Source: Shigella phage sb4. Taken from it: 64,000 nt of DNA. Under the pieces are notes generated by a model. It saw only the letters and a list, made by a program, of their open reading frames with translations, was not told the origin of the DNA and ran no database searches. How positions within the stretch are numbered: position 1 is the first letter of the stretch; the number at the start of each line of letters is the position of its first letter. The stretch is taken from the sequence record PQ666542; one strand, written 5' to 3'. A program made the translations under genes and the position numbers. This document shows positions 15,246 through 21,619 of this stretch, in pieces.

Positions 15246-15668
15246 TTATACCACGTTTATACGTGAAGCATTATACTCTGTTGCTGAAGCTAGTTGCAGT
15301 TTTATCTGCTCAATATCATCAGGGTTATCGATGACTGAAAAGCGTATTTCTACTATCAGAGTATAATCATCATAAACTGGTATTACATTAACTGCTAATT
15401 TATCAATACGTGGCTCGTAGTTTCTTACTGCGCTTTCAATGTTACGCTCAACAGTATCAGCCGTAAGAGGAGTCATATTCTCAAAAAGCTGATCAGATAA
15501 ATCGCATCCAAATTCTGGGTCAAATGGCCTTGACCCTTTTCTAGTTGTAATAATTCCTAAAAGGCTATTTTTAATTGACCTTAATCCAAGGGATCTGGAA
15601 ACGTCTTTGTCCCAATCCATTTTCATTTCTGGGTCAATGTCAGAATAAAGCTTATTAATATTTGCCAT
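15246..15668 (-). CDS. 25: Baseplate wedge protein gp25
   Basis: MANINKLYSDIDPEMKMDW...; synteny. Confidence 0.85.
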   Translation of the reverse strand: MANINKLYSDIDPEMKMDWDKDVSRSLGLRSIKNSLLGIITTRKGSRPFDPEFGCDLSDQLFENMTPLTADTVERNIESAVRNYEPRIDKLAVNVIPVYDDYTLIVEIRFSVIDNPDDIEQIKLQLASATEYNASRINVV

Positions 15669-16294
15669 TACAATAGCTCAAAGAATTCTTTGAGTCCTCT
15701 TATTACATGAGCGTGAGTTTTTCCACACTCTGGACACTTAATTGGAACAGCCAAATAAACAGTAGGCTTTAAAAGCATATCTTTTATAGCTACAATATCT
15801 GACTCTGTGATGATAGAGTATAAATCTTCCAGTTCTTTTTCATTTAAGTCTTCAACTGGAATGCTTTCACCGTTAGCATGAATCGTTTCTATACATGATA
15901 CTATCATGTGGGCTATATTTTTATCATCAAAAATTTTAGGGTAATGGAACTTAATTTTAATGTCACCCAGTGTATACCAGAGGTCTTCTGGTGCATCTAT
16001 TTGTGTATGAAATAGATTTATATGGGTTGGTATTTCAGTTCAGCAGTTGCATTTCCAGGAGTTTTCGTGATTAACTTCTCCAAGAGATTGCGCCCATAAA
16101 TGAATCAACAGTAGTTCTGATTCTTGGCGGTTTAAATCTTTTGCATTTGTACAGTCTTTGATTAGCTTTTTAACGATCTCTTCTACTGAACCGTTCTTTT
16201 TAGCAGTAATAAGTTCTAGATATTCTTTAAGAGTAAATGCGCGACAGTTGATTATTTTAGAACCAACTCTCACGTCAAATTTGTATTCATACAT
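15668..16294 (-). pseudogene. 26: Baseplate hub protein gp26, one in-frame TGA (16040-16042)
   Basis: 209 codons, the T4 gp26 length; single TGA and frame otherwise open. Confidence 0.8.
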
Positions 16295-16319
16295 ATTTAG
16301 CTCCTTTATTTATCATATT

Positions 16320-16327
16320 TATAAATA
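16320..16327 (+). promoter_or_regulatory. Candidate late promoter TATAAATA upstream of gene 51
   Basis: Exact consensus about 18 nt upstream of ATG. Confidence 0.35.
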
Positions 16328-16344
16328 GAATAAAAGGAGCATCT

Positions 16345-18269: not shown

Positions 18270-18747
18270 AGAAGTTTCTATTCCTAAAATGGGTCTTAAA
18301 CATTATAACATTTTAAAAGATGTTAAAGGTCCTGATGAAAATTTAAAACTTCTTATTGATTCTATTTGTCCGAGTTTATCACCAGCAGAAGTTGATTTCG
18401 TTTCCATTCATTTATTGGAATTTAATGGAAAGATAAAATCTCGTAAAGAAATAGATGGTTATACTTATGACATTAATGATGTTAATGTGTGACAAAGATT
18501 AGAATTTCAATACCAATGAAATAAATTTTTTTTTAGACCTCCTGGAAAATTTGAACAATTTTTAACGGTGAGCGATATGTTATCCAAATGCTTGCTTAAG
18601 GTCAATGATGAAGTTAAAGAAATTAATTTTCTTGAGATGCCAGCATTCGTTTTAAAATGGGCAAATGATATTTTTACAACTTTAGCAATTCCTGGCCCTA
18701 ATGGTCCAATAACTGGAATTGGAAATATTATTGTATTATTTGAATGA
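18214..18747 (+). pseudogene. 28: Baseplate hub distal protein gp28, two in-frame TGA (18490-18492, 18517-18519)
   Basis: 178 codons in one frame, the T4 gp28 length; overlaps gene 27 end and gene 29 start. Confidence 0.8.
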
Positions 18748-20516
18748 AAAAGCCACAAGAAATGCAAACGATGCGTATAAAAGTTATTTCAGATAATAAA
18801 CCGACACAGGAAGCGGATAAATCCGCTTCCAACACTTTATCTGGACTTAACGATATATCTACGAAATTGGATGATGCTCAAGCTGCTTCTGAATTAATTG
18901 CTCAAACTGTCGAAGAAAAATCGAATGAAATAATTGGAGCAATTGACAACGTAGAAAACGCAGTGAGTGATACTACTGCTGGTTCTGAGTTAATTGCTGA
19001 AACTGTCGAAATTGGCAACAATATTAATAAAGAAATCGGTGAATCGCTCGGAAGTAAATTAGATAAATTAACAAGTTTACTGGAGCAAAAAATCCAGACA
19101 GCTGGAATTCAACAAACTGGAACTAGTTTAGCTACGGTTGAAAGCGCTATTCCTGTTAAAGTTGTTGAGGACGATACAGCTGAATCTGTGGGTCCTTTAT
19201 TACCGGCTCCTGAAGCGGTTAATAATGATCCTGATGCTGATTTTTTCCCTACCCCTCAGCCAGTTGAACCTAAACAAGAATCGCCAGAAGAAAAACAGAA
19301 AAAAGACGCATTTAATTTAAAATTATCTCAAGCTTTAGATAAATTAACAAAGACTGTTGATTTCGGATTTAAGAAATCCATTTCAATTACTGATAAAATA
19401 TCAAGCATGCTATTTAAGTATACTGTCAGTGCTGCTATTGAAGCTGCTAAAATGACTGCAATGATATTTGCTGTTGTTGTTGGAATAGATCTGCTGATGG
19501 TTCACTTTAAATATTGGTCAGATAAATTTTCGCAGGCATGGGATTTGTTTAGTACAGACTTTAAAAAATTCTCTAGCGAAACCGGAACATGGGGTCCTTT
19601 ATTACAGAGCATCTTTAGTTCTATCGATGAAATTAAAAAATTCTGGGAAGATGGAGATTGGGGCGGTTTGACGGTAGCCATTGTAGAAGGGCTTGGAAAG
19701 GTTCTTTATAATTTAGGAGAACTTATTCAGCTTGGAATGGCTAAATTATCTGCGGCAATTCTTCGAGTTTTTCCTGGTCTGAAAGATACTGCTGATGAAG
19801 TAGAAGGAAGAGCACTAGAAAATTTCCAAAATTCTACTGGAGCATCTCTCAATAAAGAAGACCAGGAAAAAGTTGCGAATTATCAAGATAAACGAATGAA
19901 TGGAGACCTTGGTCCGATAGCAGAAGGACTAGACAAAATTGCGAACTGGAAAACTCGTGCATCTAACTGGATTCGTGGCGTTGATAATAAAGAAGCACTA
20001 ACTACCGACGAAGAACGTGCAGCAGAAGAAGAAAAATTAAAGCAACTTTCACCAGAAGAAAGAAAAAATGCTTTAATGAAGGCTAATGAAGCCCGTGCCG
20101 CGATGATTCGTTTTGAAAAATACGCTGATTCGGCTGATATGAGTAAAGACTCAACAGTTAAATCAGTTGAAGCTGCCTATGAAGACCTTAAAAAACGGAT
20201 GGATGACCCGGATTTAAATAATTCACCGGCAGTTAAAAAAGAACTTGCTGCTAGATTTTCTAAAATTGATGCTACTTATCAAGAGCTCAAGAAAAATCAG
20301 CCTAATGCCAAACCTGAAACTTCTGCTAAATCGCCAGAAGCAAAACAAGTCCAGGTAATAGAAAAGAACAAAGCACAGCAAGCTCCTGTTCAACAAGCAT
20401 CTCCTTCGATCAATAATACTAATAATGTTATTAAGAAAAATACTGTCGTTCATAATATTACACCCGTAACGAGCACGACTGCTCCGGGGGTATTTGGCGC
20501 GACTGGAGTTAATTAA
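18744..20516 (+). CDS. 29: Baseplate hub / tail length determinator gp29
   Basis: 590 aa, same length as T4 gp29. Confidence 0.9.
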   Translation: MKKPQEMQTMRIKVISDNKPTQEADKSASNTLSGLNDISTKLDDAQAASELIAQTVEEKSNEIIGAIDNVENAVSDTTAGSELIAETVEIGNNINKEIGESLGSKLDKLTSLLEQKIQTAGIQQTGTSLATVESAIPVKVVEDDTAESVGPLLPAPEAVNNDPDADFFPTPQPVEPKQESPEEKQKKDAFNLKLSQALDKLTKTVDFGFKKSISITDKISSMLFKYTVSAAIEAAKMTAMIFAVVVGIDLLMVHFKYWSDKFSQAWDLFSTDFKKFSSETGTWGPLLQSIFSSIDEIKKFWEDGDWGGLTVAIVEGLGKVLYNLGELIQLGMAKLSAAILRVFPGLKDTADEVEGRALENFQNSTGASLNKEDQEKVANYQDKRMNGDLGPIAEGLDKIANWKTRASNWIRGVDNKEALTTDEERAAEEEKLKQLSPEERKNALMKANEARAAMIRFEKYADSADMSKDSTVKSVEAAYEDLKKRMDDPDLNNSPAVKKELAARFSKIDATYQELKKNQPNAKPETSAKSPEAKQVQVIEKNKAQQAPVQQASPSINNTNNVIKKNTVVHNITPVTSTTAPGVFGATGVN

Positions 20517-20524
20517 GGAATAAT

Positions 20525-21619
20525 ATGGCAATTGTTAAAGAAATAACTGCTGATTTAATTAAAAAGTCCGGTGAGAAAATTTCAGCCGGACAGAGTACTA
20601 AATCAGAAGTAGCAACTAAAACATACACTGCCCAGTTGGAAACTGGGCGTGCTAGTGGTAATGACACTACAGGAGACTTCCAGGTAACAGATCTATATAA
20701 GAATGGATTATTATTTACTGCATACAATATGTCATCTAGGGATTCTGGAAGTCTTAGATTGATGAGATCTAACTACTCTTCTTCATCTTCGAGTATTTTA
20801 AGTACAGCTAGAAACACTATTAGTAGTACAGTATCAAAACTATCAAATGGATTAATATCAAACAATAATTCAAGAACAATAAGTAAAGCTCCTGTCGCAA
20901 ACATTCTTTTACCGAGATCTAAATCTGACGTTGATACATCATCACATAGATTTAATGATGTTCAAGAAAGTCTTATTAGCAGAGGCGGAGGTACTGCTAC
21001 TGGTGTGTTAAGTAATATTGCTTCAACTGCAGTATTTGGGGCACTGGAAAGTATAACACAAGGTATAATGGCTGATAATAATGAACAGATTTATACGACA
21101 GCCAGAAGTATGTATGGCGGTGCTGAGAATAGAACTAAAGTGTTTACATGGGATTTGACGCCACGTTCAACAGAAGATTTAATGGCTATTATTAATATCT
21201 ATCAATATTTTAACTATTTTTCTTATGGTGAAACGGGTAAATCTCAATATGCTGCTGAAATATAGGGGTATTTAGATGATTGGTATAGTTCTACGTTAAT
21301 TGAACCTTTATCTCCGGAAGACGCAGCTAAAAATAAAACACTATTTGAGAAAATGACATCGAGTTTAACTAACGTTCTAGTAGTTTCAAACCCGACAATT
21401 TGGATGGTGAAAAACTTTGGTGCAACATCTAAGTTTGATGGAAAAACGGAAATATTTGGTCCATGTCAAATACAGAGTATCAGATTTGATAAAACACCTA
21501 ATGGTAACTTTAACGGATTAGCTATTGCTCCAAACCTCCCTAGTACATTTACTCTTGAGATTACTATGAGAGAAATTATCACGTTAAACTGTGCTTCTTT
21601 ATATGCGTGGACTTTTTAA
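20525..21619 (+). pseudogene. 48: Baseplate tail-tube cap gp48, one in-frame TAG (21263-21265)
   Basis: 365 codons in one frame, the T4 gp48 length. Confidence 0.85.

Follow-up and report, generated by a model that had tools for sequence, protein, structure and literature searches.

Premature stop codons in a 64-kb segment of a T4-like Shigella phage as probable errors of the deposited record

The window, its genes and their interruptions

The DNA considered here, hereafter the window, is a stretch of 64,000 nucleotides (nt) from a T4-like (Tequatrovirus) phage of Shigella, in which essential baseplate and capsid genes are interrupted by premature stop codons. It runs from gp18 (end of the tail-sheath gene) to motA, through gp19 to gp24, the baseplate hub genes, alt, ligase, nrdAB, td, gp32 and the tail-fibre genes gp34 to gp38. 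A megablast search of the window against 50,697 phage records returned hundreds of collinear relatives; no record was identical to it, and the best relatives, namely ECp13, pSs-1 and the Kolkata phages sb1 to sb3, were only 97–98% identical. In pSs-1 the collinear part is the final 64 kb, and the window is also collinear with the sibling records described below.

Stops were surveyed by aligning each pSs-1 coding sequence to the window and translating the genes within the bounds of their homologues; the conservation of the stops was checked in eight aligned relatives. A site was called private when the window differed from the relatives while all of these agreed, the reference set being pSs-1, ECp13, sb2, Ec_MI-02, IsaacDaniel and T4, six relatives that each align over the full length of the window.

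A previous sequence-only reading had listed seven stops in gp26, gp27, gp28, gp48 and gp24, and all seven were found where it had placed them:

8276..8278, plus strand: gp24 (capsid vertex), codon 264, GAA to TAA, premature stop (pSs-1 coding-sequence alignment)
16040..16042, minus strand: gp26, codon 85, GGA to TGA, premature stop private to the window
17418..17420, plus strand: gp27, codon 109, TTG to TAG, premature stop, by a private T>A at 17419
18144..18146, plus strand: gp27, codon 351, TCA to TAA, premature stop, by a private C>A at 18145
18490..18492, plus strand: gp28, TGC to TGA, premature stop, one of five private changes in 18484–18530
18517..18519, plus strand: gp28, GGA to TGA, premature stop, private
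21263..21265, plus strand: gp48, codon 247, AAG to TAG, premature stop (pSs-1 coding-sequence alignment)

None of the eight aligned relatives carries any of the seven, and the five private changes of gp28, its pair of stops included (segment 18440–18560), were present in none of 649 phage records. The stop in gp26 divides the gene into two open reading frames (ORFs), 16040..16294 and 15668..15907, which correspond to the published TMC4_219 and TMC4_220 of Shigella phage TMC4. Similarly, the fragments of gp27 correspond to TMC4_222 and TMC4_223, those of gp28 to TMC4_224 and TMC4_225, and those of gp48 to TMC4_227 and TMC4_228.

The anomaly had been taken as confined to baseplate and capsid genes, among intact neighbours (gp25, gp51, gp29 and gp54), a description that did not survive the survey of the whole window. 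Premature in-frame stops numbered 50, in 28 of the 89 genes, and frameshifts were found in addition in gp25 and pseT. There is no local enrichment of stops in the region first flagged, where their density was 1.01 per kb, versus 0.72 per kb in the window for 46 stops (about 0.8 per kb when all 50 are counted). As for the neighbours, gp25 is frameshifted at 15285, and gp51, gp29 and gp54 are free of stops by chance only. Several genes are hit repeatedly (rnlB 4 stops, uvsW 3, the two alt genes 7, ligase 2, rnlA 3, nrdA 5, td 2, gp37 2), and gp59, dsbA, motA and others bear stops as well; in alc, one stop falls on the penultimate codon. All three stop types are involved, as had been claimed, with 31 TAA, 9 TGA and 6 TAG among 46 typed stops.

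Forty-eight of the 50 stops are missing from all eight relatives, and the other two (38071 in Rz, 43451 in nrdA) recur in the sibling record sb1 only. Reverting the private substitutions abolishes 46 of the 50; the remaining four are likewise unique to the window, at places where the relatives vary or where few of them align. Beyond the seven stops listed above, the following features were recorded:

15285..15285, minus strand: gp25, private 1-nt deletion relative to 6 of 6 relatives, frameshift near the 3' end
26068..26149, minus strand: alt, cluster of four GAA to TAA stops at codons 336, 322, 315 and 309 (pSs-1 coding-sequence alignment)
36121..36121, minus strand: pseT (polynucleotide kinase), private 1-nt deletion and frameshift, seen against the relatives and as published TMC4 ORFs 260 and 261
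43373..43469, minus strand: nrdA, cluster of four TAA stops at codons 151, 131, 125 and 119, within an AT-rich patch, with isolated G/C bases turned into A/T
1..64000, no strand: layer of about 430 unselected substitutions; 628 private substitutions (363 of them transversions), 50 in-frame stops and about 8 private insertions or deletions (indels)

In gp25, the deletion turns the C-terminus from ...QLASSNRV(stop) into ...QLASATEYNASRINVV(stop), so that the last 4 residues are exchanged for 12 others. The change at 43451 in the nrdA cluster is also found in sb1.

A layer of substitutions that escaped selection

The 628 private substitutions amount to 10 per kb, versus 2.4–7.9 per kb in close relatives, and the share of transversions among them was 58% (363), versus roughly 10–30% in the relatives. 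These transversions were C>A (95), G>T (76), A>T (66), T>A (59), T>G (32) and A>C (29), exchanges between C and G being nearly absent (6). Within genes, the private transversions were spread evenly over the first, second and third codon positions (116, 109 and 102, respectively), and comprised 238 nonsynonymous changes, 45 synonymous ones and 44 stops. In contrast, the private changes of each of the six real relatives were dominated by third positions, synonymous changes and transitions, with zero to three stops. Relative to pSs-1 the window has, in addition, some 1,300 coding differences in common with other relatives, mostly at third positions. The window is therefore a natural Tequatrovirus genome to which some 430 substitutions have been added that were never under selection. 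We estimate that this layer consists of about 300 transversions and 130 transitions, or about 0.7% of the bases. Both its even spread over codon positions and its chance-level number of stops are those of changes on which no purifying selection has acted. Only about 8 private indels accompany the 430 or so substitutions.

Private changes were clustered, with 55 distances between neighbours of 10 nt or less versus 20 expected. The clusters sit in AT-rich stretches, in which isolated G/C positions became A/T, for example at 43373–43469 in nrdA and at 26068–26149 in alt. The bases next to the changed sites were also biased: C>A sites were flanked by T at frequencies of 0.48 and 0.50, versus 0.33 and 0.31, and T>A sites were followed by A at a frequency of 0.43, versus 0.26. 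Along the window, the density of private transversions was uneven, from 0 to 16 per kb, being very low at 1–2, 32–34 and 56–60 kb and high at 36–37, 39–40 and 61–62 kb. Such unevenness of the errors may reflect read depth.

The number of stops was compared with that expected at random. When the transversions were placed randomly in matched sense-strand contexts of ±2 nt, 41.4±4.2 stops were obtained, versus 44 observed (P=0.29), and a context of ±1 nt gave 36.1±5.0. New stop triplets were moreover created out of frame (26 in +1, 27 in +2) and on the antisense strand (15, 16 and 36). This agreement of the in-frame count with context-matched random placement argues against deliberate design, a cause that had been proposed for the stops, since it shows that the reading frame was not targeted. 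Targeted or designed stops were rejected likewise on the whole set of simulations that preserved the spectrum, which gave 36–41 stops (about 30 for transversions alone without context), versus 43–46 seen. The stops are a by-product of this layer of substitutions: its dominant types (C>A, G>T, A>T, T>A) easily change GAA, AAA, TCA and TTA codons of the AT-rich genome into TAA. About one in eight erroneous transversions thus makes a stop, which gives some 50 stops over essential and non-essential genes alike. TAA dominates because these four codons are abundant and the commonest errors convert them.

Sibling records, the published TMC4 list and other relatives

Four Shigella phages from a lake in Kolkata were deposited under accessions PQ666539 to PQ666542, the first three being sb1 to sb3, and were described as "recovered and propagated" and as "viable isolates" (PMC11993411). 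The workflow of that study comprised DNA extraction with cetyltrimethylammonium bromide (CTAB), an enzymatic-fragmentation library with polymerase chain reaction (PCR), a NovaSeq 6000 instrument and SKESA (PMC11993411). One of the phages, TMC4, is reported to have 164,971 bp and 291 ORFs (PMC11993411; Kayet et al., Bioinformation 2024). Its Table 1 assigns ORFs 219 and 220 to gp26, 221 to gp51, 222 and 223 to gp27, 224 and 225 to gp28, 226 to gp29, 227 and 228 to gp48, and 229 to gp54. Further along come Alt (231–236), ligase (238 and 239), pseT (260 and 261), rnlA (267–269), nrdA (272 and 273), td (276 and 277), gp37 (291–293) and motA (300 and 301) (PMC11993411).

The genes split in this published list are exactly those split by the stops of the window. 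For a closer comparison, the fragments of the window of at least 30 residues were numbered from gp19, set at 199. The numbering matched that of TMC4 exactly for ORFs 199 to 206, and then, from uvsY to gp33, kept a constant offset of 3 over some 70 consecutive ORFs. On the basis of this numbering and of circumstantial evidence, the window is, almost beyond doubt, the final 64 kb of phage TMC4 (PQ666542), a natural Tequatrovirus of the pSs-1 type.

The same kind of defect was found in sb1 (also named ADG1; PQ666539). This record has 266 private transversions, at codon positions 1, 2 and 3 in 95, 81 and 90 cases, and 22 private stops, among others in gp23, gp22, gp27 and gp32. In its segment 100900–150899, the annotation gives split or truncated coding sequences for gp23 (major capsid), gp22, gp27, gp48, gp51, gp29, rnlA, nrdA and gp32. 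Like the window, sb1 is a Tequatrovirus of the pSs-1 type with an even codon spread, a spectrum dominated by C>A and G>T, and stops in essential genes; unlike it, other genes are struck, and the excess of A>T and T>A is smaller (41, versus 125 in the window).

C>A or G>T changes were also found at identical sites in different records: 16 were common to the window and sb1, versus 1.95 expected (P=1e-10), and 13 to the window and sb2, versus 0.41 expected (P=1e-16). Two of the sites that the window shares with a sibling are stop codons, in Rz and nrdA. Because these phages were isolated separately, identical sites indicate that the cause is technical and systematic to that study. The two genomes with the most noise are also those with the most ORFs (291 and 285, versus 254–255 in the cleaner siblings) and with the lowest guanine-cytosine (GC) content. 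Milder signs were seen in two other records: sb2 (PQ666540.1) has an excess of C>A and G>T, and its gp34 and tail-sheath genes are split, and in ECp13 (PP274704.1) rnlA is annotated as two coding sequences and nrdB has a private stop.

Some further features of the window and its relatives were noted. A stretch of 800 nt at 740–1540, in the gp18–gp19 interval, is exactly that of pSs-1 and nearly identical in sb1, sb3 and IsaacDaniel; it has no private substitution, versus about 8 expected. It contains ORF 809–1426, of 205 residues, which gave no match in a Pfam search and is missing at the matching position in T4 and Ec_MI-02; this ORF may be a mobile insertion. At 22964–27073, the window has two tandem full-length alt (ADP-ribosyltransferase) genes, as does pSs-1, whereas T4 has a single alt gene with the remnants alt.-1 and alt.-2. 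Compared with T4, the window lacks segD, segE, mobE, segG and the introns of td and nrdB. The tandem alt genes and the missing seg and mob genes and introns are natural variation. Finally, a 32-kb record titled "Staphylococcus phage SAJK-IND" (MG010123.1) was 97.3% identical to the T4-like baseplate region of the window, and is probably mislabelled or a contaminant.

Weighing of the causes, and consequences

We hold, with a probability of about 0.9, that the stops are base-calling or assembly errors in the deposited record and not mutations carried by the phage. The errors were shown to be private (628 substitutions, and 48 of the 50 stops, missing from close relatives), blind to the reading frame, non-biological in their spectrum, present in chance numbers, and recurrent in sibling records of one study, as seen from the pattern in sb1 and from the sites that sb1 and sb2 have in common with the window. 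A T4-type phage could not be propagated if it had nonsense codons in gp24, gp26, gp27, gp28, gp48, gp37 and about twenty other genes. The phage was propagated as a viable isolate, yet its record shows about 30 broken genes, which argues for an artefact. Of the three causes put forward by the sequence-only reading, artefact is thus the one favoured, and neither heavy mutagenesis nor deliberate design is supported.

As to how such errors might have come about, oxidative damage to the library (G>T and C>A), carry-over in the two-colour chemistry of the NovaSeq instrument, or both, followed by a permissive assembly, would be candidates, each specific mechanism being tentative at best. With two-colour chemistry, every transversion is a change in a single channel, and carry-over from the neighbouring cycle would make a T-flanked C, or a T beside an A, read as A. 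Signal carry-over of this kind fits the observed enrichments of flanking bases (T around C>A, A after T>A). The change C:G>A:T is a recognised oxidative artefact of library preparation (PMC10415152). The window resembles Illumina data with artefacts of this type (by 8-oxoguanine, or 8-oxoG) in that C>A and G>T form its largest class, 171 of the 363 private transversions. It differs from them in that oxidative artefacts are normally read errors of low frequency and not consensus calls, and in that they leave its 125 A>T and T>A changes unaccounted for.

Some observations weigh against an origin by sequencing or assembly error. Errors of Illumina reads normally vanish from the consensus at ordinary depth, and neither oxidative damage nor carry-over accounts for the survival of about 0.7% of errors into an assembly. 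The near absence of C<->G changes (6 of 363) is likewise explained by neither idea, and a simple model of two-colour chemistry does not fully predict it. The number of stops fits chance only when it is conditioned on local context, a simulation of transversions without context matching giving 29.6±5.1 stops versus 43 observed. Real variation among phages of one lake could account for some of the sites that the window has in common with sb1 and sb2, and the correspondence between the window and TMC4 rests on the fingerprint of ORF numbers and on circumstantial evidence.

Other technical routes were rejected. Patches of single-strand damage are not indicated, as neighbouring purine>T and pyrimidine>A changes were no more strand-coherent than shuffled labels. 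Nanopore miscalling of glucosyl-hydroxymethylcytosine does not agree with about 8 indels versus about 430 substitutions, nor with half of the transversions lying at A/T sites in AT-rich context, and the paper gives Illumina as the platform. Patching with a reference sequence would be expected to leave long blocks identical to pSs-1; none was present, the longest exact run being 800 nt.

Real mutations would require heavily mutagenised or damaged, largely non-viable phage DNA, with oxidative or abasic lesions fixed by replication, or else defective genomes that are complemented. Bypass of 8-oxoG, and of depurinated sites by the "A-rule", are known sources of changes of the G>T and A>T type; the spectrum of the window (G>T, A>T and their complements) resembles theirs, and private changes without purifying selection would be expected of such DNA too. 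However, the phage was propagated, which would be impossible for a clonal consensus in which about 30 genes are broken by 50 nonsense mutations and 2 frameshifts; the clusters lack strand coherence; and identical changes, two stops among them, recur in independently isolated sibling phages, which again indicates a systematic technical cause. Heavy mutagenesis of a live phage is for these reasons implausible, and real mutations in this broader sense are very unlikely. Scarcely credible is a variant in which real G>T/C>A and A>T/T>A lesions come from an unrecognised hypermutation of T4-like genomes in the Shigella host or the lake, for example under oxidative stress or as a defence of the host, in which case dead genomes would make up most of the sequenced DNA. 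A sequence made or altered in silico, be it the output of a generative model or a natural genome with simulated noise or inserted stops, is highly improbable as well. It would agree with the lack of a match in an exact 60-nt search of IMG/VR and with the exact gp29 and gp51 proteins not being found in a protein collection, and changes that are mostly substitutions, AT-biased, clustered and accompanied by few indels are what base-by-base sampling could yield. Yet the published TMC4 list mirrors the fragmentation ORF by ORF, and a public sibling, sb1, has the same defect with common error sites. The stops, at chance number, do not lie early in the genes, and some 280 pointless nonsynonymous and synonymous transversions stand beside them, unlike in a design. 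A generative model as the source was dropped once the TMC4 list was found to fit the pattern of fragmentation.

The stops might instead be real and tolerated, by readthrough, suppressor transfer RNAs (tRNAs) or reassignment of stop codons. Reassignment of a single stop codon is known in some phages, and suppressor tRNA mutations can occur in T4. In the window, however, all three types occur in frame while the same three still end genes; none of the 50 is conserved in the eight relatives, apart from the two sites common to sb1 (38071 in Rz, 43451 in nrdA), and the gp28 pair was absent from all 649 records. The rate of in-frame stops is that of chance, and frameshifts and about 240 private nonsynonymous transversions accompany them. 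No tRNA gene, suppressor or other, is present in the 64-kb window, the tRNA cluster of the genome lying outside it. Recoded phages, such as the crAss-like and Lak phages with reassigned TAG or TGA, share with the window the many in-frame stops in structural genes, but they use a single stop type in a conserved manner and have genes for suppressor tRNAs or release factors, none of which was seen in the window. Readthrough or recoding is excluded for practical purposes. Nor is the record that of an amber stock, in agreement with what the sequence-only reading had concluded. Classical amber mutants of T4 resemble the window in that essential morphogenesis genes of a T4-type phage are interrupted by premature stops, but in such stocks the genome is a selected one apart from a single UAG codon or a few of them. 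In the window, 28 genes have 50 stops between them; all three types occur, TAA in most cases, and most of the stops were made by transversion. Two frameshifts and hundreds of unselected changes accompany them.

The stops are a sample of a record defect that extends over the whole window; they are not a feature of the phage, and they reveal no new biology. The finding is of value solely as a warning about the quality of the records PQ666542 and PQ666539. Of the "complete genome" records of one study, at least two, PQ666539 and, for the window, probably PQ666542, contain about 0.5–1% of erroneous substitutions, which split dozens of genes, inflate the ORF count and lower the GC content. If such records are trusted, comparative, pangenome or machine-learning studies will obtain pseudogenes, "novel" small proteins and a diversity that are not real. 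Bad records of this kind can be flagged without raw reads, from an even spread of private substitutions over codon positions together with the number of stops relative to a context-matched random expectation.

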